The position numbers and the translations under genes are program-made. DNA of 64,000 nucleotides, taken from assembly GCA_963704645.1 (NCBI GenBank), contig OY969926.1:1124491-1188490 (forward strand). The letters are read 5' to 3'. Each line of letters opens with the position of its first letter. Within the stretch, counting starts at the first letter, position 1. The notes beneath the pieces are model-generated. The model had not been told where the DNA came from. It did no database searches and saw only the letters and a list, made by a program, of their open reading frames with translations. The DNA comes from an uncultured bacterium (GTDB lineage Bacteria; Patescibacteriota; JACMRA01). Of this stretch, positions 808 to 42,233 are shown one piece after another.

Positions 808-3800
808 ATGTCTAGTATAAACACTAAACCTAATTCTGGTATTGAATCTAAACCATTTCAAAAAAATACAAGTAATAAAAATATATTTAACTTTCTTAAA
901 AAGAAACCATCTAAAATATTACAATTTAGTTTTATTGCTCTAGTGTTGGGTATAATTAGTTTAGCAGCCTATTCAAGTTTAAATAATGGAAGAAATGTAG
1001 CTTTTGCAGCAAACGACCCAGTAATAAGCTTAGCCTTATCTCAAAAGTCTGGAACAGCTCCTTTTGACTCGGGAACTTGTACAACCGGTGGAACAAGCTA
1101 CACACCAGGACAAGATGTTTGTGATGCAGATAATGTTGTTAGAACTTTAGATACTGTGGAGTATACTTGGACGGTGTCTGTTACTAGCGACCCTGCAAAT
1201 AATGTTACTGTGGTTCAGACATTGCCTTCACAGATGATTTGGAATTCAGCTACTCTTCCTGTATTTTGTAGAACAGGAGCAGGATTTAACCCCCAATCTA
1301 GCTACAGTGGCCAGACACTTACTTGTAATCTAGGGTCTTTTACAGCCGGAACTTCTACTACAACAAATTATGACCAGATATTTGCTAAGGTTAAAGGAGA
1401 TAATCTTAACTCTACAAATATATTGACAGCACCAATTACTGCCAATGCTGATTCTAATGTTACAGCCGGTACTAGGACAGCTAACTCAACTTCTAATACC
1501 TTAAGTCCATTGGCAATTAGTGCATCACCTAGATATGATTTAGTAGTTTTTACAACCAACCCTTCTGAATATTCAATAAGAAATAATCCTCAAGGAGATG
1601 TAGGCATAGTTGTGTCTGGAGTTGCCTCAATTAAATTACAAGGAAAAGGTGTTGAAATGCCCCAACAACCGTTTAGTTTTAACTTGGGACTTGAATATCT
1701 AACACCTGTATCATCTGGCCAAACTTATTCAGGCGCTAAACTATATGATTGGGACACAAATTTGCTTGGTTGCTCAGGGACAGTAAACACTGTAGGCGCA
1801 GCGGATTATCCATCAAAAAATTTAAACTGCACCCAAACCGCACCTGGCGACACTGTATCCCTAATAGTAAATAATCAAGACTTGTCTGGTACAAATGCAC
1901 CTGCTACAATTTTCGCCAATGTTGTAAACTTTCCTAACATAGACATATTTTCACAGAAAGTTCGTTTTTGGATACCCAAGACTGATTTTGATAAATTATC
2001 TGGAACAAATTTTCAGTTTAGAGCTGTAGGATCAAATTTTAATCCAGTGAGTATTTCTGGTGGTTCAAATAATGGCACTGGAATAGAATCAAATACCTTG
2101 AACAACGTAGGGAGTGTTACAACTTTTGGATATAATCCAGCAAACCCTCTCTCTGGTGTATATCAGCTATCAGATTTTGGAGGCCCTTCAGGAGATCTTA
2201 GAATATCTTCTGGCTTTCAGGTTTACACACTAAATGAATTAGGTAGAATAAGTGTAACACTTCTCAGTGCTGGATTGTTTAACACAGAAAATGCTTTAGA
2301 TTTATGTACAGCAATTGACCCAACAATAGGTAGAGTGGCCGGGGATGTAGCTCTTCCAGCAGACCCTCAAAACATATATGCAGATTTTTCTAATTCAATA
2401 ATTGAGTATGCGAATGTGAATGGATTTCCAGCCACCTCTTGTGACGACATAGGAACAACATGGGTTACTTCCCCAAACATTTCAAGCATAGGAGGTTTTG
2501 ATAATGTCACTCGAGTAAGAATTAAAAATATAAACAGACTTTCTCCTGGTATTCAGACTATTTTAAATATACCTTTTAGGTTTAACAATTCAGTACCGAA
2601 CTTAGATGTTTTAGTCAGTCCTTATCAAACAATAATTAAATCTGCTACTGCCACAGCTGGGAATTGGCAAATAGTCGGCCAAAGTAGAGAAAAAATAGTT
2701 GTTAAAATGATACCAAGGGTAAATTTTTCTATTTTAAATGATACTCCAAACAACAATACAACTACAGTACTTTTGAACAATCCAGCTGGTGGTAGTAACA
2801 CTGTAAAATACTCTTTAAAATATGGTAGTTTTTCCCAAACTTCAAATACAACTGACACCACTAGTATTTCATACAGACTTAGACTTCCAAAAGGCCAAAT
2901 TTATTTAGTAGGTTCAAGTAGGCAAGGAGTGCCTACAGTTATGGCAGCCGGGCAGCCCGCTGAGACAAGTAATTTATTTGAACCAAGTAGTATAATTACT
3001 AATCTAGATGGAACTCAAGATATTCAATGGGACATATCTAATCTGCCTCTAAATAATCCTCAAAGTACTTATCCGAACTTGACTTTTAAAACTGTTGTTT
3101 CAGCTTTTACACCAAATGGCTCCATATTAAGTAATTCTGTAACTACTTTGAGTCCAGATTATTTCAATTCCACTGTAAGCCCTGCTTGTGGATCAGGCTG
3201 TTCATTACCCCAATCCACAATAACCGTCCAAAACCTATCCTCCTTCGCGGTAGAACAAGTTCCAAATAATCCACTGATTGAAAAGAATAAAGATCTTGGT
3301 TTCACACTTCGTTATGGTAATTTGGATACACTTAACCCTGTAGCTTCCTCAACGCATATTAATGTATTTCCTTTTAGCGCTCAAACACCACCACGCTCTC
3401 CTGCCACCTCCTTTACAGGTAATCTTGTTTTCAAAGGTTTAGTTGTAGCTCCAAATAGTGCTAGTTCAGACCCTGCTGTGGTTAATACTAATGACAACAT
3501 AACAGGTGGTGCTGGTACTGTTCAATATACTAAAGCAGTAAGTAGTAGTAGTATAGCTTCTGATCCATGTGATGTTAGTAACAATCCTGCTGGCTCGCCC
3601 GTAAACACTAATCCAAGATGTGCTGGTGTAGATGGTTCTGTAATTGGCACAGGAAGCACTATCTGGTGTGATGCTTCTCTAGATCCTGCTACTCCTAGTA
3701 TTAAAAACTACTCAATCTTAAACAATGCTGGAGTTTATTCTGGAACCAATGGAGCAAACTCTTCAACTTGTCCTACTACTCTTTCTGAAGTAACGGCTTT

Positions 3801-6654
3801 TAGATTAGTTACAGGCTCTCTTCCTATTGCTTCTGGTTCTGGTGGAACTATCTATGAAGTTAAAGCTAACTTTGGTACTAATGGAAATACCAATAGTAAT
3901 ATCTACACTAACTTATCTCAAGCCAGAGCTGAAGGTATTGCTACAGTTGCTACATCTAATAGTGCAGTAACCAGAGTAAGTAGTGGAAGTGTAAGTGGAA
4001 ATATATTTAATGATAAAGACAGCAATGGAATAAAAGATATTCTAGCTACTATTCCTAATCCAAACTTTGATCCAGGCCTACCAACTGATCCTATCTCCAA
4101 CCCTGAAACTATCACCAACCCAGAAAGTGACTTTGATCTTAGTGGGGTAAGCGTAGAACTAAGATACGGTACTGGTAATTTAGATGAAAACAACCTTCCA
4201 ATTGCTGAGGGAAGTTTAATTACAACTGTAACTACTGATTCAACTGGAAACTACACTTTCCCTAATATCTCAAGCGGTAACTACACCGTAGTTGTACTTC
4301 AAAACGGTATTCCTCTTTCTATTCAAACTACAGACAAAGACTTTGCATTAGACTTAGCTGCTAATCCAGGCTCTCCAAACAATACTCTTTTAGATAACTC
4401 AACGCCAATTACTTTAACATATACCAACGGAGTGGGTGTAAACAATATTTCTAATGCAAACTTTGGATACAACCAATACAGCAGACTTACTGGTAAACTT
4501 TATGCTGATACAAATAACAATGGAATTCAAGATGATGGAAGTGTAAATGGTAACCCAGCTGAACCAGACTTTAACTCTACCACTAATCTAATTCCAACTG
4601 GTACCAGTGTAGTTATTACTTCTACAACAACACCAAGTATTACTTACACTTTAACTACAGCAACATCTTCTACAGTTGTAAGTGGCTTTACTACAGGCAG
4701 CATTAACAACAGCGGTGTTGGTTCAAGTTTTGGATCCTTTTCTCAAGACTTACCTGTAGGAGAATATACCGTAACTGTTCTTACCGCCAATCCTAAATAC
4801 ATTGTTTCAGTTTCAACTCAGCTTGGTGATGCTGTTGGAGCTAACCCAAGTACACTAACTGTTAGCTTTGGTCAAACAAGAAGTTCTGGAAATGATGGAT
4901 TACACCTTGTTCAAATTCAAAATACAGATATTGACTCTATTGCTTGTAACCCAACTACAACAAATGTTGATACAACCACAGATTGTACTGTTACTTTAGT
5001 AGCCGGTAGAAACTTTAATGCTTTAAGTGGAAGTATAGACTTTAGAATAGGCGATGGAATTGCAGGACAAGGTGGAACTGTTAAAACCTGCTCTATTCCT
5101 GTTACTGGTAATGGAGGAACTGGCAGTGATGGAACTATTACAGTTACAACTTTAACTTGTACGGGTATAACTGTAGGAAGTAATATTGGTATTTTCCCAG
5201 CAAGTTTTAAAACAAGCAACGATACAACTTTCATTACAGGATCAAGCCCAACTAATATTACAGTAATTAATACAATTCAACCTAGTGATATTGACAGCAT
5301 AGTTTGCCAAAGTCCTAAAGTAGTTAATGCAACTACAGACTGTGTTGTTACTCTAACTGCCAATGCCGTAAGTAGTAACAGAGCCTTTAACAATTTAACT
5401 GGTAGTATTGCTCTTAAAATATCTGATGGTATACTTTTAACTTGTCCTAACTTTGCATCGTCTACTTCACCTTTTAACACTCTAAATTGTAATGCAGTTT
5501 CTGTAGGAAGCTTAATAAGTTCTGGAAATGGATATACTGTGAACTATGCTCTTAATGCTAGCACAACTACAACTGACGCACCTAATACTCCAAGTAAAAG
5601 CAATTATGTAGTGGTTAACAATACAATTCAACCTTCTAACCTATCTAGTGTGGTTTGTGATAGTCCTAAACTAATTAACCAAACAACAGACTGTGTAGTT
5701 ACTTTGGTAAGTGGAAATAGTTTTGCTAACTTATCTGGTGACATTAAAATTAAGATTAATGATGGACTTGAAACCTCATGCCCTGCCTTCTCTTCCTCAA
5801 TTACTCCGTTTAACACCTTAACATGTACAGTAATTCCAGTAGGAACTTTAATTGGAACTTTCAAACCGGCCTATAGTTTAAGTAGTTCAGCAGCAATAGA
5901 CACATTAAGTACTGATGTGGTTGTTTCTAATCCAGTTGATGAAACTATCTTGTCTAATCCATCAACTACAATTAATTGCCAAACAAATCAAATAAACTCT
6001 ATTACAACTTGCACTTTCACTCTTCCTACAAATACTACTTTAGCCTCAGGATTAAAACTAGGTATTGGAGATTCTACACCAGCAGGAACTTGTATAGTAA
6101 CTAATGCAACTACAGAAGAAGTAACTTGTACAGGTGTACCAACAGGATCTTTAATAGGGCAACAAATTATTAAAGTGCAGATAGCCTCTGCAGCTGTGGT
6201 AGATACAACTAGTACTGCACTAGTAACAGACACTCCTTGTTCAACAACCAATCCTTGTGCTATTCTAGATTCTAGTCTAACCTACAACCCAACCCAAGCC
6301 CTAGCCAAAAGATATGGAGCTTCTGGTTCTACAAACTCAGATAACCTAATACTAACTCTAAAAGATACAAGATTAGAACAATCTGGATTTACTACAACAT
6401 GTTCCATAAAATATAAATTCAGAACAGATACAAGCTACAGAATATTAACAACAAACTCTACCTACAATAATACTACAGGATGTACAGGAAACCTTCTTAA
6501 AGCAAATCAACTATTATTCAATGTAGACTTTGAAATAACTGCAATAACTACAAATACAACTACAAACACTACAAAGAACTATCTAATCTATTCCAACTAC
6601 GATTTCAAAGCTGGTTCTATTGGAGTTACTTCTATTGGAGGAAGTGGGTTGTAG
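808..6654 (+). CDS. giant membrane-anchored surface protein (1948 aa) with SdrD/Cna-B-like segments and Cys-containing tandem Ig-like repeats
   Basis: Single long ORF. Lys-rich N-tail followed by a TM helix (ILQFSFIALVLGIISLAAY). Thr/Ser/Asn-rich beta-type composition. Motifs GNIFNDKDSNGIKD, GKLYADTNNNGIQDD and GNYTFPNISSGNYTVVV. Four ~105-120-aa repeats (IQxxDIDSIxC..TTDCxVTL..) at about 4905-6230. Confidence 0.85.
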   Translation: MSSINTKPNSGIESKPFQKNTSNKNIFNFLKKKPSKILQFSFIALVLGIISLAAYSSLNNGRNVAFAANDPVISLALSQKSGTAPFDSGTCTTGGTSYTPGQDVCDADNVVRTLDTVEYTWTVSVTSDPANNVTVVQTLPSQMIWNSATLPVFCRTGAGFNPQSSYSGQTLTCNLGSFTAGTSTTTNYDQIFAKVKGDNLNSTNILTAPITANADSNVTAGTRTANSTSNTLSPLAISASPRYDLVVFTTNPSEYSIRNNPQGDVGIVVSGVASIKLQGKGVEMPQQPFSFNLGLEYLTPVSSGQTYSGAKLYDWDTNLLGCSGTVNTVGAADYPSKNLNCTQTAPGDTVSLIVNNQDLSGTNAPATIFANVVNFPNIDIFSQKVRFWIPKTDFDKLSGTNFQFRAVGSNFNPVSISGGSNNGTGIESNTLNNVGSVTTFGYNPANPLSGVYQLSDFGGPSGDLRISSGFQVYTLNELGRISVTLLSAGLFNTENALDLCTAIDPTIGRVAGDVALPADPQNIYADFSNSIIEYANVNGFPATSCDDIGTTWVTSPNISSIGGFDNVTRVRIKNINRLSPGIQTILNIPFRFNNSVPNLDVLVSPYQTIIKSATATAGNWQIVGQSREKIVVKMIPRVNFSILNDTPNNNTTTVLLNNPAGGSNTVKYSLKYGSFSQTSNTTDTTSISYRLRLPKGQIYLVGSSRQGVPTVMAAGQPAETSNLFEPSSIITNLDGTQDIQWDISNLPLNNPQSTYPNLTFKTVVSAFTPNGSILSNSVTTLSPDYFNSTVSPACGSGCSLPQSTITVQNLSSFAVEQVPNNPLIEKNKDLGFTLRYGNLDTLNPVASSTHINVFPFSAQTPPRSPATSFTGNLVFKGLVVAPNSASSDPAVVNTNDNITGGAGTVQYTKAVSSSSIASDPCDVSNNPAGSPVNTNPRCAGVDGSVIGTGSTIWCDASLDPATPSIKNYSILNNAGVYSGTNGANSSTCPTTLSEVTAFRLVTGSLPIASGSGGTIYEVKANFGTNGNTNSNIYTNLSQARAEGIATVATSNSAVTRVSSGSVSGNIFNDKDSNGIKDILATIPNPNFDPGLPTDPISNPETITNPESDFDLSGVSVELRYGTGNLDENNLPIAEGSLITTVTTDSTGNYTFPNISSGNYTVVVLQNGIPLSIQTTDKDFALDLAANPGSPNNTLLDNSTPITLTYTNGVGVNNISNANFGYNQYSRLTGKLYADTNNNGIQDDGSVNGNPAEPDFNSTTNLIPTGTSVVITSTTTPSITYTLTTATSSTVVSGFTTGSINNSGVGSSFGSFSQDLPVGEYTVTVLTANPKYIVSVSTQLGDAVGANPSTLTVSFGQTRSSGNDGLHLVQIQNTDIDSIACNPTTTNVDTTTDCTVTLVAGRNFNALSGSIDFRIGDGIAGQGGTVKTCSIPVTGNGGTGSDGTITVTTLTCTGITVGSNIGIFPASFKTSNDTTFITGSSPTNITVINTIQPSDIDSIVCQSPKVVNATTDCVVTLTANAVSSNRAFNNLTGSIALKISDGILLTCPNFASSTSPFNTLNCNAVSVGSLISSGNGYTVNYALNASTTTTDAPNTPSKSNYVVVNNTIQPSNLSSVVCDSPKLINQTTDCVVTLVSGNSFANLSGDIKIKINDGLETSCPAFSSSITPFNTLTCTVIPVGTLIGTFKPAYSLSSSAAIDTLSTDVVVSNPVDETILSNPSTTINCQTNQINSITTCTFTLPTNTTLASGLKLGIGDSTPAGTCIVTNATTEEVTCTGVPTGSLIGQQIIKVQIASAAVVDTTSTALVTDTPCSTTNPCAILDSSLTYNPTQALAKRYGASGSTNSDNLILTLKDTRLEQSGFTTTCSIKYKFRTDTSYRILTTNSTYNNTTGCTGNLLKANQLLFNVDFEITAITTNTTTNTTKNYLIYSNYDFKAGSIGVTSIGGSGL

Positions 6655-6713
6655 GGGGTAATCCAAAAATGAAATTGAGGTATAAAGGTAATCCCTTAAC
6701 TCCACAACGCTGT

Positions 6714-6736
6714 GTAGGGGAGATACCTTATCTCCC
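6714..6736 (+). repeat. GTAG-hairpin (REP-like) unit GTAGGGGAGATA-CCT-TATCTCCC
   Basis: GTAG followed by a perfect 8-bp stem (6718-6725 / 6729-6736). Confidence 0.6.
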
Positions 6737-6865
6737 TGGGTAAATGAAGGGAAAGGAGGGGAGGTAAAGGACAAACCACCAATCGTAACTTCCTCGTTTC
6801 CTCACCCCCCCACACACCCAAACTACCCCCAAGCCTTTGGCTTGACCCCTTCGGGCAAACATGTC

Positions 6866-6884
6866 GGTTGAAACAAGTTCAACC
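6866..6884. repeat. hairpin GGTTGAA-ACAAG-TTCAACC (same loop and inner stem as hairpins at 9571 and 10584)
   Basis: Perfect 7-bp stem. The ACAAG loop and TGAA/TTCA inner stem are shared with the other two copies. The outer 3 bp are changed in a compensatory way. Confidence 0.55.
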
Positions 6885-7015
6885 TGCGCCAGTTTACTTA
6901 CCAGGGGTACTTTTTATGTAGTAGCTTTCCCAGCACCCCTATCTAGGCACGACTGTCCCGTTCTTGATAATTTTTACCAAAACCTAATTAAGAAGAAATG
7001 ATAGGTAGGCAACCC

Positions 7016-8392
7016 CTACTTCAACAACTTCAAAACTTCTTGTTCGCGAATTGTAGTAAACTTAATTGTTGGGTTTAGGTTCATTTTTAAAGCGTTGGCG
7101 GTTTTGGTTCTAGTTTCAATTTGGGTTGGTGTACGTAAGTTTCCGCTTAAAGTTAGTCTTCCCGAAAAAATTGGTAAAGTACTACTTTTAAACCAGTTTT
7201 TTACATCTAAATTAAATGTGGAAGAAAGAATAGCAACCATTATGGCCAAGTCTAAATTTTCGTCTGGGTTTGAATTTGGCCAGCCAGAAATTTGTAAGTA
7301 AACGTCTCTTCCAGTTAAGTCTAGGTTTAAATATTTTTCGCAAATAGCCAAAATTGTATTTAGCTTGGCCGTTTTTATTCCCAAAGCTTCTCTTCGTCCA
7401 AAAAAGTTTCCTGCGCCTGCCGTTTTAGCTGGAGTTACCAAAGCTTGAATTTCAACAACCAAAGGCAAATCTCCGTCTAAAGCCAAGCCGTAAGCAACGC
7501 CCATTCCACTTTCAGTGTTACCAAGCAAGGCCAAACTTGGGTTAGTAATAACTTCCAAACCAGACGCACCCATATTCATAAGCATGGTTGGTGTGGTTGG
7601 GCCGTACCTATGTTTATTAAAACGTAAACTTCTAAAATTGCCCACATTGGCGTTTTCTAAAATTAAAACAGAATCTACTAAGTGCTCTAGGGTTTTAGGG
7701 CCTGCAATTTGTCCTTCTTTAGTAACGTGCCCAATTATTATAATTGCCATGTTTTTATTCTTACTTAAAGCCAATAAATGACTGGCTAAAGTTGTTACCT
7801 GACTAACCGAACCAGGAGCAGTTTCAAGGTTGGCTGTAAAAATTGTTTGAATAGAATCTACCACCAAAACATCGAAATTAAAACTGGCCAATTTACCTTC
7901 CATTTCTTCATAGGAATTGGTTTGCAAAATGTTTAAAGTTTCTGGAATACCAAGTCGTTTAGCCCGTTTAGCAATTTCCAAGGCCGATTCTTCTGCAGTT
8001 AAGTAGCAAACTTGTAAATTAGAATTTAGCTTATTTTGTAGAAGCGAACGGACCAGCTGTAAAGCCAAAGTGCTTTTACCAAGACCAGGTTCACCCGCTA
8101 ACAAAGTTAAACTAGCTGGCACTAAACCACCACCCCAAAATTGGTTTAGCATTGCCGCTTCAAACTTAAACAAAGGTGATAAATTTACATCTTCTAACCT
8201 AGAATACAATTTTTCAAGTTTTGTAATTTGATTATTCTGAATAGACGGTTGCTTTTTGCTGGTAGCATTTATTGGCGAAACTGTTTCTTCCACAAAACTA
8301 TTCCAACTGTCACAACTGGGGCATTTACCAACCCACTTAGCAGTTTTAAAATTACAGTTAGAACAAACAAAAACACTTTTAGCTAAGGCCAT
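7016..8392 (-). CDS. radA: DNA repair protein RadA/Sms
   Basis: N-terminal Zn-finger CSNCNFKTAKWVGKCPSCDSWNSF. Walker A GEPGLGKST. KNRFG-like box RFNKHRYG. Lon-protease-like C-terminal domain. 458 aa. Confidence 0.95.
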   Translation of the reverse strand: MALAKSVFVCSNCNFKTAKWVGKCPSCDSWNSFVEETVSPINATSKKQPSIQNNQITKLEKLYSRLEDVNLSPLFKFEAAMLNQFWGGGLVPASLTLLAGEPGLGKSTLALQLVRSLLQNKLNSNLQVCYLTAEESALEIAKRAKRLGIPETLNILQTNSYEEMEGKLASFNFDVLVVDSIQTIFTANLETAPGSVSQVTTLASHLLALSKNKNMAIIIIGHVTKEGQIAGPKTLEHLVDSVLILENANVGNFRSLRFNKHRYGPTTPTMLMNMGASGLEVITNPSLALLGNTESGMGVAYGLALDGDLPLVVEIQALVTPAKTAGAGNFFGRREALGIKTAKLNTILAICEKYLNLDLTGRDVYLQISGWPNSNPDENLDLAIMVAILSSTFNLDVKNWFKSSTLPIFSGRLTLSGNLRTPTQIETRTKTANALKMNLNPTIKFTTIREQEVLKLLK

Positions 8393-8489
8393 ATTTTAAT
8401 GTGAGATGGTAAGTGGGAAATGTAAAGAGTTGCTTTGGAAGATTAATTTGAAAGTTTATTAAGCCTAGACAAATGAGTACTGTCACCCT

Positions 8490-9569
8490 TGTATATGTCA
8501 TAAATTTCAGTGACAGAATTTAAATCTTCTTTTAGATTATTTCTGTTAAATTTTTAACAACATACATTCTAACATAATATGCGTTTAAATGATAATACTT
8601 TAACCAAGAATTACCTTAGACATATGAAACAATTAGTTCAAGAATATGAATTAATTAAAACAAGGAAACATCCTAGATATGTATTTGTAAATGAATTCTA
8701 CAAAGCAAATAATATAACTAGACAAAACTTCATCAAATATTACAATAGGTATAAATTAGTCTCTATGGATAGTAGTTTAATTCCAAAGAAAAGAGGAAGA
8801 AAGTTTGGTAGTTTAAAAAGTATTCCCTTTATACAGAATAAGATTATTGAACTTAGAAACCAAGGATTTGGTAGATATGAGATACACGATTTCCTTTTAC
8901 CTAAGTATGGTAAATATACTCCTTCACCTACGACTATTTACAATATACTATTAAAGAAAGGATTGAATAGATTAGATCCAAGAGTAATTCAAACTAACAA
9001 AAGAAGAATCATTAAAGATAAAGCAGGAGAATTAGGCCATATGGATTGCCACAGACTAGCTAAAGGAATACTGGAGGGTGAAAAGAATGAATACTTTCTA
9101 CTAAGCTTAACAGATGACTTTACTAGAATAGTTATGACCATACTAATACCTAATCTACAAGCTCTAACAGTTATGCTTTATACTCAAAGATTATTAGCAG
9201 TATTCAATAGATGTTACAACATAGATTTTCAAAGTATATTAACAGACAATGGACCCGAATTTGGAAGGAAAGAAACAAAAGAAGAAAACAAACAAAACCA
9301 TCCATTTGAAAGATTACTGTTAGAATACAACATTAAGCATAAGTACACTAGAGCCTACAGGCCACAAACCAATGGTAAAGTAGAAAGATTCTGGAGAAGT
9401 TTAGAGGAAGAATTACTTAGAGAGCAAGTATACCCAGATAAAGAAAGTTTAGAAGAAGAATTATTTGAATATTGTTGCTACTTCAACCATATTAGAAGAC
9501 ATCAAGGTATTGGTAATATTACTCCCTATGAGAAACTTAATTCTGTCACTGAATAAGTTGACATATACA
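8490..9569 (+). mobile_element. IS481-family-like insertion sequence (about 1.08 kb, single transposase ORF)
   Basis: Imperfect terminal inverted repeats TGTATATGTCA...CAGTGACAGAATT (8490-8520) and AATTCTGTCACTG...TGACATATACA (9539-9569). TGT termini. One DDE ORF fills the element. Confidence 0.8.
8579..9556 (+). CDS. IS481/IS3-type DDE transposase (integrase core domain)
   Basis: HTH-like N-terminus. DDE triad context HMDCHRL, LTDNGPEFG and RPQTNGKVERFWRSL. 325 aa. Confidence 0.9.
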   Translation: MRLNDNTLTKNYLRHMKQLVQEYELIKTRKHPRYVFVNEFYKANNITRQNFIKYYNRYKLVSMDSSLIPKKRGRKFGSLKSIPFIQNKIIELRNQGFGRYEIHDFLLPKYGKYTPSPTTIYNILLKKGLNRLDPRVIQTNKRRIIKDKAGELGHMDCHRLAKGILEGEKNEYFLLSLTDDFTRIVMTILIPNLQALTVMLYTQRLLAVFNRCYNIDFQSILTDNGPEFGRKETKEENKQNHPFERLLLEYNIKHKYTRAYRPQTNGKVERFWRSLEEELLREQVYPDKESLEEELFEYCCYFNHIRRHQGIGNITPYEKLNSVTE

Positions 9570-13483: not shown

Positions 13484-13507
13484 GGCGATGATTAACATCG
13501 CCCCTAC
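13484..13507 (-). repeat. GTAG-hairpin (REP-like) unit GTAGGGGCGATG-TTAAT-CATCGCC between convergent genes; probably also a terminator
   Basis: 7-bp stem at 13484-13490 / 13496-13502. The complement of GTAGG lies at 13503-13507. A T-run follows on the + strand. Confidence 0.6.
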
Positions 13508-21903: not shown

Positions 21904-24387
21904 CTACCCCTGCTCTTCCCATTTCCAACTCAAAACCTCTGGTAAATCATTTCCGTTTTCAACAATGTATTTTTTGTGTTCTACTAGTTTTGATTTTAAG
22001 ATTTGGATTAATTCTACAGACTTTTCTGCTATAATTGAATTATTTTTTGAGGCTATTTCCAAAGCTTTAATTGCCATGTCAAACCTTGATGTTCCATTTA
22101 AAACTTGCATGTCAAAAGGTGTTGTTGTACTGCCTTGTTCCATATAACCCAAAATTGTGGTTTTACTAGCTAAACTTGTACCATACAAAATTTGTTTTAA
22201 AGCACTTGGGTAACCGTGGAAGTTTATTAAAACTTCAGTATTTTCTGGGAAAATTCGCTTATAAATTTGTTCAGCATTTTCAGTCGAGGAGACAGCACCC
22301 AAACCAAAACTAGTTAGCTGGCTTATATTTACATATTTAAATGAAAGTTCTGGAGCGTTTTGTTTCAGCCAGCTAATTGCAGCCATAGTTTCCAAAGTTT
22401 GATAGTCGCCAGCTGAAGCTAAAATAATATCTGGAGATGAATTTTGAGAGTTGTTTACACCAGAATTACCAGCAAATTCCCATTCCATAATACCTGCTTC
22501 AACTTGAGCTTTAGCCTTATTTACATCAAGCCATTGTGGAAGATCAGTTTTACCTGCTACAATTAAATTTACAGTGTTATTTTCGGTTAAAACTTTTTTT
22601 GCAACTTCTAAACCAATATTAACATCTACTGGGAAATATACATTGGCGAAATCTACATTTTTAGATAGCAAAGTATTAATTAGAACAGGGTTTTGATGCG
22701 TAAAACCGTTATGATCTTGCCTCCAAGTTGTGCTGGTTGCAATGTAATTCATGCTTGGTCTACTGCCCCTCCAATTAAATTTGTTCGCCTGACTGGAATA
22801 CTTAATAAATTGGTCAATTTGACTTATAATAATGGCTAGAAAAGCTTCGTAAGAAATTAAAATACCGTAACCCCCAAAGGCATTATAACCTTGCATCCAG
22901 CTTTGCAAAGTTTGCTCGCTAAGTATCTCCATAATTTGTCCACTTTCACCTAAATTGTCGTCCCATTCTTTTAGTGGAAGATTAAAAACTCTGTCTGTGT
23001 TTTCGTATAAAGTTTCTAATCGGTTAGACTCGGCTTCGTCTGGGGAAAAAATTCTGAATTTATTTGGGTTCTGGCTAATAATTTGGCTTAAATATTTTGA
23101 AACATGAACCATTAAATTACCATTTTGACCTTTAACTAAAGTTTGGATTTGGAAGTTTAAAATATCAGGCAAAGCAAGCGGTTGATTAGCTAATGATAAA
23201 GTTGATTGAATATTACCAAGTCTATTTTCTGGGGATGGTAAAAACTTTGTTACTTCTGGACGCACCGTGTTTTGCAATGTGTCTACCAGCTCTTCAATTT
23301 TGTAAGATTCAAGCCAGCTTTTTAGCACTTCAAATTCAGCTTTATTTTGTTTAGGATTTTTTAAAGGAAGCCCGTGAGCCAAATTATTTCCTTCAATTTT
23401 CCCCCCATTAGCAAATTTCGGCCCAGTCCAACCCTTCAAAGTTCGCAGTAAAATAACAGGTAATTTAGTGGTTTTACCAGCTTTATAATTTACAATTTGT
23501 TGATAAGCTAAGGTTAAAGTTTCCAAATACGTTGTAAGCCATTCTTCACTTTCATTTAAATCAGCAAAGTTCTGAGTAACCAAAAATGGTTTATAATTTA
23601 AGCCTTCAAAGTACTTAAATAAATCTTCATCACTCATTCTGCTGTATACAGTTGGGCCAGAAATTTTGTAATCATTTAAGTGTAAAATTGGTAGAACAGC
23701 TCCGTCAGATTCACGGTTAATAAATTTATTACTTTGCCAAGAAGCAGCCAAAGCACCAGTTTCAGCCTCACCGTCACCAACCACGCAAACCGTAATTAAA
23801 TGGGGGTTAGATAATATAGAGCCATAAGCTAAACCAAGAGAATAACCTAACTCTCCCCCTTCATTTATACTACCAGGGAGACCAGGATAAGTGTGACTTG
23901 GAAAGCCTTCAGGCCAGCTAAAATTTTTAATTAGGTTTTCTGCACCAGTTAAAGTTTCAGGGTATTGTGGGTAATATTTGCCTAAACTTCCCTCAAGCCA
24001 CAAATTGCTTAAAATAGCAGGAGCTCCATGCCCTGGCCCAACAATTAACAACATTTTTGCAGGGGAATACTGGTCATTTAACGTCTCACCTACTTTCTTA
24101 ACATCTTCAGTAGCGGAGAATCTTGATTCTCCATTTCCAATGTGCAAGTTAAAATTCAACCAATTCAAACCAGCATAAATTAAATTAAGCCCTGGAACAG
24201 TTCCCCAATGCCCAACTACTCTTTCTTTCAAATGATGTTCAACTAATGGTTCTTCCAACCAAAAATTATCTTTTAAATATAAAGTAGAAACAGAAATATA
24301 GTTAGTTAAACGAATATTTTTTATTAGCCAGTCTAAATCTGCACTGTATTTATTTTTATTTAAAGGATTTTTTGAAGTTTCCGGCAT
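21904..24387 (-). CDS. xfp: xylulose-5-phosphate/fructose-6-phosphate phosphoketolase
   Basis: 827 aa. VVGHWGTVPGLNLIYAGLN, GPGHGAPA and the TPP-binding GDGEAETG blocks are typical of phosphoketolases. Confidence 0.95.
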   Translation of the reverse strand: MPETSKNPLNKNKYSADLDWLIKNIRLTNYISVSTLYLKDNFWLEEPLVEHHLKERVVGHWGTVPGLNLIYAGLNWLNFNLHIGNGESRFSATEDVKKVGETLNDQYSPAKMLLIVGPGHGAPAILSNLWLEGSLGKYYPQYPETLTGAENLIKNFSWPEGFPSHTYPGLPGSINEGGELGYSLGLAYGSILSNPHLITVCVVGDGEAETGALAASWQSNKFINRESDGAVLPILHLNDYKISGPTVYSRMSDEDLFKYFEGLNYKPFLVTQNFADLNESEEWLTTYLETLTLAYQQIVNYKAGKTTKLPVILLRTLKGWTGPKFANGGKIEGNNLAHGLPLKNPKQNKAEFEVLKSWLESYKIEELVDTLQNTVRPEVTKFLPSPENRLGNIQSTLSLANQPLALPDILNFQIQTLVKGQNGNLMVHVSKYLSQIISQNPNKFRIFSPDEAESNRLETLYENTDRVFNLPLKEWDDNLGESGQIMEILSEQTLQSWMQGYNAFGGYGILISYEAFLAIIISQIDQFIKYSSQANKFNWRGSRPSMNYIATSTTWRQDHNGFTHQNPVLINTLLSKNVDFANVYFPVDVNIGLEVAKKVLTENNTVNLIVAGKTDLPQWLDVNKAKAQVEAGIMEWEFAGNSGVNNSQNSSPDIILASAGDYQTLETMAAISWLKQNAPELSFKYVNISQLTSFGLGAVSSTENAEQIYKRIFPENTEVLINFHGYPSALKQILYGTSLASKTTILGYMEQGSTTTPFDMQVLNGTSRFDMAIKALEIASKNNSIIAEKSVELIQILKSKLVEHKKYIVENGNDLPEVLSWKWEEQG

Positions 24388-31377: not shown

Positions 31378-31455
31378 GGGTATGTAGCTCAGCCTGGTTA
31401 GAGCACAGATCTTATAAGTCTGCGGTCGGTGGTTCAAATCCACCCATACCCACCA
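31378..31455 (+). tRNA. tRNA-Ile with anticodon UAU, CCA encoded
   Basis: Cloverleaf folded by hand. Acceptor GGGTATG/CATACCC. D arm GCTC..GAGC. Anticodon stem CAGAT/GTCTG with loop CTTATAA. T arm GGTGG-TTCAAAT-CCACC. Discriminator A followed by CCA. Confidence 0.9.
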
Positions 31456-35119: not shown

Positions 35120-35247
35120 AATTCACAATGTAGGGGCGAACCCCGCGTCGCCCTTCGCACATTATAATCCAAAATATTCTCTCATAATTACCATTCGGAG
35201 GGATTTATCCTCCTGTGCTGTGGGAATTTACCTACACGTCGTGAATT
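35120..35247. repeat. REPIN-like doublet (128 bp) with inverted termini AATTCAC-N3-GTAGG / CCTAC-N5-GTGAATT
   Basis: The left unit GTAGGGGCGA-ACCCCGCG-TCGCCC (35130-35153) faces an inverted GTAGG unit (35231-35235). An internal hairpin GGAGG(G)AT-TT-ATCCTCC lies at about 35198-35214. Confidence 0.55.
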
Positions 35248-38370: not shown

Positions 38371-39699
38371 CTACAACAACTCATTCCCAACTTTATCTTC
38401 TAAAGTAACCTGGTTCCACAAAGTTCCTCTATCAAAAGTAAAAACATTTGGGTCCGCTTTAATATCTGTTAATTTTAGGGGAACGGTTAAATGCACACCA
38501 GCCATTGTTCTGCAACGGCTAAAAGCTACATAGGTTTGGCCAAAAATAAAAGCTCCCCTACCCATGTTAATAATACAATTATCAAAGGTTTGCCCCTGCG
38601 ATTTATGAATGGTTACGGCCCAAGCCAATTTTAAGGGATATTGCACAAAACTGCCTACTGTTTTCTTTACTGTTTCCAACTTCTCTTCATCATATTCATA
38701 CTTATAGGCTTCCCAAGTAGAAAGTTCTACTTCTACCAATTTTGAGTTTTTAGAATTTAAACGAATTAAGACTGTGTCTTTTTGAAGCTCTTCCACCACT
38801 CCAATTGTACCATTTACCCAACGTCTTTCTGGGTCATTTTTAATAAACATTACTTGAGCCCCAATTTTTAGGTTTAAATATTTTTCAGTGGGATAAAGCT
38901 CTTCCCCGAAGCTTCCTGTAATTACGGCTTTGTAGCTAAATTCTTCAGCACTTAGTTTTTCCAATTCATCAAAATTTATATTGGCAGCATCTTTGTTTAT
39001 AGTTGTAATAGTAATTGGTAAAGTTTCTTGCGGAACATTTTTGCCAACAAATTTAGTATTCACCCAAGAAATTAAGCTTGCATTGGCCACGCCGTAACGT
39101 AAATAATTTAATAATTTTATGAACTCGGCTTCACTTTGGCGGTAATTGTGTTCAAGTTTTATATATTTCAAATGCAAATCTGCAAAACATTTAGCCCCAA
39201 AAAAATATTCACTATTATAGCGACTTGAAAACTGCTCTTTTTCCTCCCGACGTAAAACTGGGGGAAGTTGAAAATGATCACCAAACAAAATTAATTGAAC
39301 ACCGCCAAAAGGTAATCTTGGCTTTTCTTTGTTCAACCTGAAAAACTTATCTAGCAAATCTAGCATGTCACTTCTAACCATGGAAATTTCATCAATAACC
39401 AAAATATCTATAGCTTTCACCCTGCGGTTATCACGAAGTTTATGAACTTTCCCCTCTTCCAAAAGTTGCCAAGCCGGATCAGTGCTTAATCTACAAAAAC
39501 TGTGAATTGTTTCCCCACCAACATTAATTGCAGCCATGCCAGTAGGTGCCAAAATTGCAACTTTTTGTTTTACTTCGTCTAAAAAATGTTTTAAAAGCGT
39601 GCTTTTACCTGTTCCAGCATCTCCTGTAATGTACAAATTATGCCGTGTTTTAAGCATTAATTCTAAAGCAAGCGTTGCAATTTTATTATCTTTAAACAT
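38371..39699 (-). CDS. Pif1-family (SF1B, RecD-like) DNA helicase
   Basis: Motif I GDAGTGKST, Ia LAPTGMAA, II VIDEISM, III GGVQLILFGDHFQLPPV, IV NYRQ, V TIHKSQGQT, VI YVAFSR. Confidence 0.9.
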   Translation of the reverse strand: MFKDNKIATLALELMLKTRHNLYITGDAGTGKSTLLKHFLDEVKQKVAILAPTGMAAINVGGETIHSFCRLSTDPAWQLLEEGKVHKLRDNRRVKAIDILVIDEISMVRSDMLDLLDKFFRLNKEKPRLPFGGVQLILFGDHFQLPPVLRREEKEQFSSRYNSEYFFGAKCFADLHLKYIKLEHNYRQSEAEFIKLLNYLRYGVANASLISWVNTKFVGKNVPQETLPITITTINKDAANINFDELEKLSAEEFSYKAVITGSFGEELYPTEKYLNLKIGAQVMFIKNDPERRWVNGTIGVVEELQKDTVLIRLNSKNSKLVEVELSTWEAYKYEYDEEKLETVKKTVGSFVQYPLKLAWAVTIHKSQGQTFDNCIINMGRGAFIFGQTYVAFSRCRTMAGVHLTVPLKLTDIKADPNVFTFDRGTLWNQVTLEDKVGNELL

Positions 39700-39703
39700 T
39701 GGT

Positions 39704-40414
39704 TCAAGTATTTATAAAACCAAGTTTGTTGGCAATGGGAGCTCTTGGATTTAAAATATCTAGTTTCCAACTTCCAGGATTATTAAATATATACTCCCGA
39801 ATTCTGGAAAGGTCTGCGTCATTCCGAATAACTCGTTCATAAAAAGATTTCTGCCAAAATGAAGGAAAACTCGTAGGGGAACGCTTGCCGTTCCCGTGAT
39901 ACTTAATATTTCGATAGACTTTATTCTCATCAACCATGCTAATTTCGTTGCTTGTTAAAATTCTATACTCTTTATGGAACCGCAAGGGTTCCCCTACAAA
40001 TTGCTTATTTATATGATACCATGATATTGATTTAAATTTGGATATTATATCCGATAAATTTGTTTCCTGTGTTGTTATTTTAGAAATTGGTTTATCTAAA
40101 AATGTCATGATTCCATGAATATGATTGGGCATAATTACAAAATCCTCCATTATTATGTTTTCAAATATGTCAGATAAACTTAGCCAAATATCAATAACAA
40201 TAGAACCAATTTCCGTAGGGACGAATTTTAATTCGCGTTGGGGCACTCCCAAGACAGGAGAAACAAGTTTCTCCCCTACGCCGTGATTTATAAAATTAAC
40301 TACCTCCCCAAAAATACATCTTTTGTCTTGCACACATATTGTTATGAAGAAAGAATTATTGTTTGAATAAATGTTTTTATCTGGGAATCTTATTTTCTTA
40401 CGGTTGTTGCTCAT
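39704..40414 (-). CDS. HUH/Y1 transposase of the IS200-like / REP-associated tyrosine transposase (RAYT) type
   Basis: HUH motif in VIMPNHIHGIM. C-terminal block FWQKSFYERVIRNDADLSRIREYIFNNP. Two extra segments are encoded by GTAG-hairpin doublets. Confidence 0.8.
   Translation of the reverse strand: MSNNRKKIRFPDKNIYSNNNSFFITICVQDKRCIFGEVVNFINHGVGEKLVSPVLGVPQRELKFVPTEIGSIVIDIWLSLSDIFENIIMEDFVIMPNHIHGIMTFLDKPISKITTQETNLSDIISKFKSISWYHINKQFVGEPLRFHKEYRILTSNEISMVDENKVYRNIKYHGNGKRSPTSFPSFWQKSFYERVIRNDADLSRIREYIFNNPGSWKLDILNPRAPIANKLGFINT
39873..39997. repeat. REPIN-like inverted doublet inside the RAYT ORF
   Basis: GTAGGGGAACG-CTTGC-CGTTCCC (39873-39895, + orientation) faces GTAGGGGAACC-CTTGC-GGTTCC (39997-39976, - orientation). 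Confidence 0.65.
40215..40279. repeat. second GTAG-hairpin inverted doublet inside the RAYT ORF
   Basis: GTAGGGACGAATT-TT-AATTCG (40215-40235, +) faces GTAGGGGAGAAAC-TT-GTTTCTCC (40279-40257, -). Confidence 0.55.
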
Positions 40415-42148: not shown

Positions 42149-42170
42149 GTAGAGGCGAGCCCGTCTCGCC
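42149..42170 (+). repeat. GTAG-hairpin (REP-like) unit GTAGAGGCGAG-CCCGT-CTCGCC
   Basis: 6-bp GC stem at 42154-42159 / 42165-42170. Confidence 0.6.
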
Positions 42171-42211: not shown

Positions 42212-42233
42212 GTAGCGGCGAAGCTTGCGAGCC
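42212..42233 (+). repeat. degenerate GTAG unit GTAGCGGCGAAGCTTGCGAGCC in tandem with 42149-42170
   Basis: Same GTAG-GGCGA head, but the stem is only weakly self-complementary. Confidence 0.35.

Follow-up and report, generated by a model that had tools for sequence, protein, structure and literature searches.

In-frame GTAG-hairpin doublets in two loops of a RAYT transposase gene from an uncultured patescibacterium

The stretch of DNA analysed here, called the window throughout, comprises 64,000 nucleotides (nt) from an uncultured bacterium of the Patescibacteriota (assembly GCA_963704645.1, contig OY969926.1, positions 1,124,491 to 1,188,490), and its gene for a RAYT (REP-associated tyrosine transposase, also TnpA_REP; REP, repetitive extragenic palindrome) carries two doublets of inverted units, each a GTAG tag followed by a hairpin, that are translated as part of the protein. 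With a probability of roughly 0.8, we take these inserts to be ordinary members of the REP population of the lineage that became fixed in two permissive loops of the enzyme presumed to mobilise such elements, and that are tolerated there as disordered decorations. The phenomenon is already published, and the window RAYT adds another case to it and no new kind of system: in-frame REP insertions inside tnpAREP are a hallmark of TnpA_Y1 subclass 2.4, which corresponds to RAYT group 4 (Quentin et al. 2018, BMC Genomics 19:475, PMC6006769). What the case does add is an example from a reduced Patescibacteria genome, two more permissive loops, and comparative evidence of unit turnover at fixed codons.

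A RAYT with an intact catalytic core

The open reading frame (ORF) in question is a RAYT, as a first-pass annotation made from the sequence alone had proposed, with a modelled Y1 HUH fold and with the HUH and tyrosine (Tyr) motifs in place. The conserved motifs of the core read P-N-H-I-H-G (residues 96-101), FWQKS (186-190) and YIFNNP (208-213), and H98, H100, W187, Q188, Y208 and N212 were invariant among 37 homologs, while I209 and P213 of the Tyr motif reached at least 90% in at least one of two homolog alignments. A profile built from the homologs matched the structure of Escherichia coli TnpA_REP (4ER8, E=2e-8), and the best Foldseek matches of the AlphaFold model were ISDra2 (2XMA), TnpA_REP (4ER8) and IS608 (2VIH), all with a probability of 1.00 and TM-scores of 0.49-0.62 on the target. 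The curated family models were less generous: the equivalog REP_Tyr_transpos (NCBIfam NF047646) gave 49.3 bits (E=4.6e-13) over residues 88-213 only, short of its cut-off of 80 bits, plausibly because the two inserts split the domain, and Pfam PF01797 (Y1_Tnp) gave 18.8 bits, below its gathering threshold of 23 bits.

By motif signature and features only, the gene fits subclass 2.4. The motifs that define the subclass are NH[IFV]H, WQ and YIxNNP (PMC6006769, Table 1), and the window RAYT has NHIH, WQ and YIFNNP. The REPs of members are GT[AG]G-tagged and lie no more than about 1 kb from the gene, and here there were four, all of them intragenic; the flanks of the gene held no GTAG unit within 1 kb, the next one being at 42149. 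The frame-preserving REP insertions within tnpAREP that mark the subclass are likewise present.

Table 1. Features of the window, with positions counted from its first nucleotide
Feature	Position	Strand	Description
RAYT / TnpA_REP gene	39704..40414	-	ORF, 711 nt, 236 residues; Y1 HUH transposase, subclass 2.4 type
HUH motif H98-I99-H100	40115..40123	-	H98 and H100 invariant in 37 homologs
Catalytic Tyr motif YIFNNP (Y208-P213)	39776..39793	-	Y208 and N212 invariant
Site-1 REP doublet, 65 nt	40215..40279	-	residues 46-67, translated VGEKLVSPVLGVPQRELKFVPT; coding strand GTAG-hairpin ... hairpin-CTAC
Site-1 left unit GTAGGGGAGAAACTTGTTTCTCC	40257..40279	-	GTAGG-GGAGAAA-CTTG-TTTCTCC; read V-G-E-K-L-V-S-P
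Site-1 right unit GTAGGGACGAATTTTAATTCG	40215..40235	+	GTAGGGA-CGAAT-TTTA-ATTCG; coding-strand reading ...ELKFVPT
Site-2 REP doublet, 125 nt, REPIN-like	39873..39997	-	residues 140-181, VGEPLRFHKEY...HGNGKRSPT
Site-2 left unit GTAGGGGAACCCTTGCGGTTCC	39976..39997	-	GTAGG-GGAACC-CTTGC-GGTTCC
Site-2 right unit GTAGGGGAACGCTTGCCGTTCCC	39873..39895	+	GTAG-GGGAACG-CTTGC-CGTTCCC; coding-strand reading GNGKRSPT
Unit GTAGCGGAGAATCTTGATTCTCC in the phosphoketolase (XFP) gene	24110..24132	+	same repeat family; read in frame as GNGESRFSAT; host gene 21904..24387(-)
Intergenic single GTAG unit	6714..6736	+	same repeat family
Intergenic single GTAG unit	13484..13507	-	stem type also in L001, L014 and L017
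Intergenic single GTAG unit	35130..35153	+	
Intergenic single GTAG unit	42149..42170	+	degenerate second unit at 42212

Two doublets in the reading frame

The four GTAG-hairpin units that had been reported within the ORF were found where they had been placed and are translated as had been written (Table 1). Both doublets have their GTAG/CTAC tags on the outside with the units inverted, and each pair of units together with one extra base amounts to a whole number of codons. Judged by their sequences, the inserts are genuine members of a REP family, in that the window has more units of this kind than expected, and identical or nearly identical ones stand between genes in the related loci L001, L014, L021 and L022 (related loci are labelled L and homologous proteins P throughout). 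When a unit was defined as GTAG plus a hairpin with a stem of at least 5 base pairs (bp) and a stem G+C fraction of at least 0.4, the window (34% G+C) contained 14 units, as against 3.4 ± 1.7 in shuffled windows, and the string GTAGGGG occurred 11 times as against 3.2 ± 1.8 in shuffles. Four of the 14 units fall within the 711 nt of the RAYT gene (binomial P=1.4e-5); when its codons were shuffled, the gene had a mean of 0.01 units.

Folding of the segments was well supported for site 2 and more weakly for site 1. As RNA, the 141-nt stretch 39865-40005 forms one long hairpin through pairing between the two site-2 units (-45.6 kcal/mol, z=-6.1), the arms being 85% complementary over 27 nt, and none of 200 shuffles was as stable. 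The site-1 element gave -25.6 kcal/mol (z=-2.4), its GTAGGG/CCCTAC ends pairing and the rest forming two separate small hairpins. As DNA, the 39873-39895 unit folds at -7.4 kcal/mol (z=-4.2), while the unit at 40215-40235, with an AT-rich stem of 5-6 bp, is the weakest of the four (-3.0 kcal/mol). The comparison of the doublets with REPINs, i.e., two inverted REPs that form a single long hairpin, thus applies to site 2 and only in part to site 1, where the two hairpins differ and only the ends pair. A search of Rfam gave no match in the RAYT region and one tRNA only elsewhere in the window.

The reading frame constrains what such an element can be. Of the six combinations of frame and orientation in which the site-2 element could be read, just one is free of stops, and it is the one in use. 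One of the two other forward frames is always closed, because a GTAG read as xxG-TAG supplies a stop. In this AT-rich genome, the 64 codons that were inserted leave the RAYT ORF open.

Insertions in loops that are otherwise short

Both doublets are lineage-specific insertions in loops that are short in most homologs, as the first-pass annotation had said of this family. The loop at site 1 has 9 residues in 22 of the 37 homologs and 30 in the window RAYT, and that at site 2 has 3-7 residues in most of them and 47 in the window RAYT, so that hairpin-less homologs with segments of equal length, which would have spoken against insertion, were not what the alignments contained. Alignment to the profile (hmmalign) placed a 21-residue insert at profile position 44 and a 40-residue insert at position 122. 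In the AlphaFold model (mean pLDDT 78), 10-residue blocks of the core had means above 90, and the block means fell to about 60 over residues 41-60 at site 1 and to 43-52 over residues 141-180 at site 2. In this model, a beta-hairpin (strands 36-42 and 60-66) has site 1 at its tip, a region called beta1:alphaA in the nomenclature of Quentin et al., and site 2 lies between the helix at 120-139 and the strand with the WQ motif, or alphaC:beta4.

A paralog of the RAYT (P0002), encoded outside the window on the same 1.27-Mb contig, has 15 residues at site 1, probably a degenerate unit. The two proteins are identical from about residue 83 to 213, the whole site-2 insert included, and sharply diverged around site 1, in the flanks as well as in the insert; this mosaic suggests, from the sequences compared, gene conversion or recombination within the gene. 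A GTAG in the native GEVV codons was also considered as a target at site 1 and is unsupported, as it lies 24 nt upstream of the GTAG of the element (21 nt between).

Shared sites and differing occupants in related RAYT genes

The DNA of five related RAYT genes (L001, L011, L012, L014 and L017) was compared, and in all five the inserts at the same two sites are bounded by units, be it a left GTAG-hairpin, a right hairpin-CTAC or both; four of the five have units at both sites. With three more distant genes (L023, L024 and L025), in-gene units were found at the DNA level in eight other RAYT genes. The L001 RAYT has an element GTAGGGGAGAAACTTGTTTCTCC ... GGGCGAATTAAAATTCGCCCCTAC at site 1 and again at site 2, and an indel of 24 nt and a handful of substitutions are all that separates the two; a right unit also stands alone close to the C-terminus. 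The left unit of the L001 element is a 23-mer identical to window 40257-40279, and its right unit is nearly identical to the right unit of window site 1. GCGAATTAAAATTCGC units homologous to the window 40215 unit are present in the RAYT genes of L001 and L012. L014 has one unit at each site, a left one alone at site 1 and a right one alone at site 2. The L017 RAYT has the site-2 element of the window at the same site, its units conserved and its spacer diverged, with a 33-nt in-frame indel; this copy is decayed, with a frameshift and HUH changed to YFH.

The in-gene units have counterparts outside genes. Near-identical copies of the 39873-39895 unit are intergenic at L001 4330 and L014 9847, and the GGAGAATC variant, one base off the window 40257-40279 unit, is intergenic in L021 and L022, where a metagenome scan for the GGAGAAWCTTGWTTCTCC unit found it in intergenic arrays. 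The in-gene units of L011 nearly match many intergenic doublets of the same contig, with one base of the tag different.

In every aligned RAYT gene that has one, the left GTAG stands at the same codon of its site, and the stems that follow it vary between genomes (GGAACC, GGAGAAAC, GGAGAATC, GGCGGGTC), while the RAYT genes of L001, L011 and L012 each repeat one unit type at both sites. The 12 left units whose frame was read are all GTA-GGG, GTA-GAG or GTA-GTG (V-G, V-E or V-V), and those of three further genes are in the same frame. Selection against stops could explain this constancy of frame, as could common ancestry of the sites or specificity for a target. Taken together, the alignments suggest fixed permissive sites with changing occupants; the turnover may proceed by gene conversion or by RAYT-mediated strand exchange, either of which fits.

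The more distant genes show other arrangements. In the L023 RAYT, a site-1 unit is accompanied by its exact inverted copy just past the HUH strand: at 3001-3510 of this Clostridia metagenome-assembled genome (MAG; protein P0025), GTAGGGGACGGCGTCCTCGACGTCCC stands at site 1 and its exact reverse complement after the HUH motif (QGTSRTPSPT), so that the pair brackets the HUH-coding segment. The L025 RAYT has units at site 1 and after HUH, with two more copies just 3' of the gene, and that of L024 has one unit, at site 1.

The wider family and known systems

That a transposase gene should carry putative substrates in its own frame had been called unusual, and this point of the first-pass annotation is not supported. 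Besides the published in-frame REPs of subclass 2.4 (PMC6006769), an exhaustive profile search for relatives (46,715 representatives at E<=1e-3) showed that, of the 149 best representatives, 120 have 8 or more inserted residues in the loop after HUH (profile position 91). At least 48 of the post-HUH inserts resemble, by a heuristic pattern, translated GTAG...CTAC palindromes, often in tandem, with peptides such as VGARHAVPLQ, GAGLKPAPT, GTACCAPT, VGATHASPL and VGAQYIAPV. Site-1 inserts were found in four of these 149 best representatives and site-2 inserts in three. The window RAYT has no insert in the post-HUH loop (beta3:alphaC), which is the usual but not an obligatory location for the subclass. 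A composite query made of the four REP-encoded peptides returned 13 candidates and missed even P0001 and P0003; it says nothing on how frequent such peptides are.

With subclass 2.4 tnpAREP, the window gene shares the motifs, the GT[AG]G-tagged REPs with G-C pairs at the base of the stem, the intragenic, frame-preserving REPs in peripheral loops, and the one to two gene copies per genome. It differs in that its inserts are at beta1:alphaA, upstream of HUH, and at alphaC:beta4, with the usual beta3:alphaC loop empty; in that they are full inverted doublets of 65 and 125 nt, whereas the family mostly has single "double-foot" palindromes; in having no flanking REP within 1 kb; and in its host, which is one of the Patescibacteria and not of the Cyanobacteria or Bacteroidetes. 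The REP insertions of the subclass were modelled as peripheral extensions away from the active site (PMC6006769).

GTAG REP dimers that lie in frame in other ORFs, where they encode 20-30 residues, were described by Di Nocera et al. (2013, BMC Genomics 14:522, PMC3733652), and the likeness is close: tagged hairpins, often dimers, in frame in bona fide ORFs and read as neutral decorations of loops. In a survey covering the 64 kb, the units of the window conform to the definition of a GTAG REP in that work (GTAG at the foot of a 5-13 bp stem, a loop of 2-20 nt, repeated). The genes listed there are for replication, repair and RNA binding, whereas here the host gene is the RAYT; for RAYT genes, PMC3733652 recorded only REPs that overlap the gene ends, and a text search of its text-format supplementary files found no "transposase" entry. 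A tRNA-synthetase example in that survey is echoed by L019, where, by reading of the sequence, a unit of the GGAGAATC variant type (GTAGGGGAGAATCTTGATTCTCC) at 1913-1935 (-) lies antisense inside an apparent ORF resembling a class-I aminoacyl-tRNA synthetase, in frame as GESRFSPTE.

The site-2 element has the form of a REPIN (Bertels and Rainey 2011), two inverted REPs and a spacer in one long hairpin, but it is intragenic and translated, and the 64-kb window contains no second copy of the doublet; the site-1 element, with its two different hairpins, is an inverted repeat only at its GTAGGG/CCCTAC ends. From the IS200/IS605 elements (IS608, ISDra2), the RAYT shares with TnpA the Y1 HUH fold and substrates that are hairpins with a 5' guide tetranucleotide. 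There, the hairpins flank the gene and define the mobile unit, whereas here they are within the ORF; no hairpins flank the RAYT gene, which ends 4 nt from the start of a PIF1 gene, nor was there any sign of a multicopy insertion sequence, and its Y motif is YIxNNP and not Y[IV]ENQ. The Rickettsia palindromic elements (RPE) are alike in being short palindromic repeats inserted, with the frame kept, into functional genes of a genome that is small and dense in genes, and RPE-4 and RPE-6 are CGTC-tagged. This likeness is one of description and not of sequence comparison, and here the gene that hosts the repeats encodes the very enzyme presumed to mobilise them; we know of no transposase dedicated to the RPE.

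Weighing the explanations

To our knowledge, no REP transposition has been directly observed. The proposal that we favour, of ordinary REPs tolerated in permissive loops, would have the elements enter the RAYT gene in the way in which REPs spread in general, through a single-strand process that depends on the RAYT and that a cis preference of the enzyme, working near the gene that encodes it, may have favoured. The copies to survive selection would be those that landed in permissive surface loops in a stop-free frame. Because the site is constant and the stem type changes between genomes, the elements would later have been retained, or else replaced by other REP copies through exchange. As for the peptides that they encode, these are most likely disordered, tolerated and of little consequence for catalysis, and regulation by the hairpins, be it through the DNA or the mRNA of the gene itself, would at most be secondary. 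Tolerated insertion was among the options put forward by the first-pass annotation, and it fits the evidence and the literature.

Several points weigh against this proposal. No close relative with an empty site was available for comparison, and P0002 still has 15 residues at site 1. Both sites are occupied throughout the near clade (P0001-P0010), as they would be if the elements were functional in cis, and the better conservation of units than of spacer between the window and L017 is also expected of a cis element. The alphaC:beta4 region is near the REP-recognition surface (PMC6006769), and the 42-residue insert at site 2 may not be neutral. The decay of the L017 copy, which has the same site-2 element, indicates that tolerance is not guaranteed in every lineage.

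A role in cis, in which the RAYT would bind or cleave the single-stranded DNA or the mRNA of its own gene, thereby regulating its own dosage or coupling enzyme output to REP processing, with the peptides as a by-product, is an alternative that we consider unlikely. It would account for the occupation of both sites in all near relatives, with hairpins intact despite protein identities of 36-47%, for the greater conservation of the units than of the spacer, and for stems that differ in a compensatory manner between genomes (GGAGAAA/TTTCTCC vs. GGAGAAT/ATTCTCC, and GGCGAATT/AATTCGCC vs. GACGAATT/AATTCGTC), but conservation and compensatory stems are equally expected of REPs that are homogenised with the genomic population. 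Since no REP flanks the gene within 1 kb, substrates nearby are limited to the in-gene units, the structure of -45.6 kcal/mol lies within the mRNA, and the location of site 2 near the REP-recognition region would suit self-targeting; RAYTs, moreover, are usually single-copy, host-maintained genes, going by the citation of Bertels 2017 in PMC6006769. Yet a single unit per site is all that L014 retains, the short inserts of P0010 contain no clear units, and the wider family mostly uses a different loop, which speaks for "any permissive loop" and not for a positioned regulatory site. The string "autoregulat" is absent from PMC8266576.

It is doubtful, on the comparisons made here, that the doublets in the RAYT genes of this Patescibacteria clade are live sites of enzyme action and not passive passengers, a notion that arises because RAYT cleavage and strand transfer at the enzyme's own gene would give the observed pattern of sites and types. 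In its particular form of an ongoing, RAYT-catalysed exchange, with both sites as active recombination points that swap REP units or doublets and the gene as a live target of its own product, we regard it as quite improbable. The enzymology is suggestive: TnpA_REP binds one strand of a REP via the GTAG and hairpin, and with single-stranded REPs in vitro it catalyses both cleavage, which falls at a CT or CA dinucleotide adjoining the REP, and strand transfer (Corneloup et al. 2021, PMC8266576). So are the constant codon with a variable stem type, the single type at both sites in L001, L011 and L012, and the close similarity of the two L001 elements, but homologous gene conversion between repeats would yield the same pattern without the RAYT, and no polymorphic intermediates were seen, four L001-type contigs encoding an identical protein. 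That the units are chance palindromes, or the gene a decaying pseudogene, is hardly credible, even with the weak, AT-rich stem of the 40215 unit, family HMM (hidden Markov model) scores below the curated cut-offs, and a decayed homolog in L017. Chance was rejected on the unit enrichment, the fold z-scores, the complete lack of the segments in homologs and the identical units found elsewhere; the pseudogene was rejected on the intact catalytic motifs and the frame open across the 64 inserted codons, the low scores being plausibly explained by the split domain. Whichever way the REPs are exchanged, the RAYT gene is a compact natural test case, since 711 bp comprise the enzyme, four candidates for its substrate on both strands and a built-in readout, namely the gain, loss or swap of units with the frame preserved; were its sites indeed live, it would preserve, in vivo, a natural record of how REPs are exchanged, and it might be a self-limiting (autoregulatory) target.

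Other units and neighbouring genes

Elsewhere in the window, the GTAG units between genes are all singles, and there are no doublets besides the two in the RAYT. The phosphoketolase unit (Table 1) lies within a variable region of about 25 residues, a loop, that is present in all three related XFPs compared, and a degenerate GTAG unit stands about 20 nt downstream of it on the coding strand. Units at 6651, 6714 and 7019(-) bracket an intergenic stretch of about 250 nt (6740-6990), rich in G+C and in C-tracts, between a gene for 1948 residues and the gene at 7016..8392; it could be an unrecognised structured RNA, and a comparison with Rfam gave no credible match (best E 0.06-0.7, to eukaryotic miRNA and lncRNA models). 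In L012, a called "gene" of 139 residues at 4017-4436 is made almost wholly of alternating GTAG REP units and is probably a spurious ORF from a REP cluster.

A PIF1-family helicase gene (window 38371..39699, minus strand) adjoins the RAYT gene in three genomes (L014 10688-12016 and L017 10491-11819), with 87% identity of PIF1 across the three as against 44-61% for the RAYTs. The two genes are co-directional in the window, where the RAYT stop is 4 nt before the PIF1 start, and convergent in L014 and L017, so that PIF1 appears to have been inverted relative to the RAYT between genomes. The adjacency of an HUH nuclease and a Pif1 helicase recalls, by analogy, the Rep/Hel of Helitrons; it could be simple synteny. 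In L001, the RAYT gene adjoins a leucyl-tRNA-synthetase-like gene (5827-8865) in which the list of Pfam matches has a NUDIX match between tRNA-synt_1 segments. The closest named relatives of the HisRS that neighbours the window RAYT were Patescibacteria/Gracilibacteria MAGs (50-56% identity); the alternative genetic code that Gracilibacteria-like neighbours bring to mind (UGA=Gly) was rejected, gene lengths matching those of homologs under the standard code. The window also encodes, at 31378-31455 (+), a tRNA-Ile with the anticodon UAU (tat), an uncommon route to decoding AUA, which bacteria usually read by a TilS-modified CAU tRNA.

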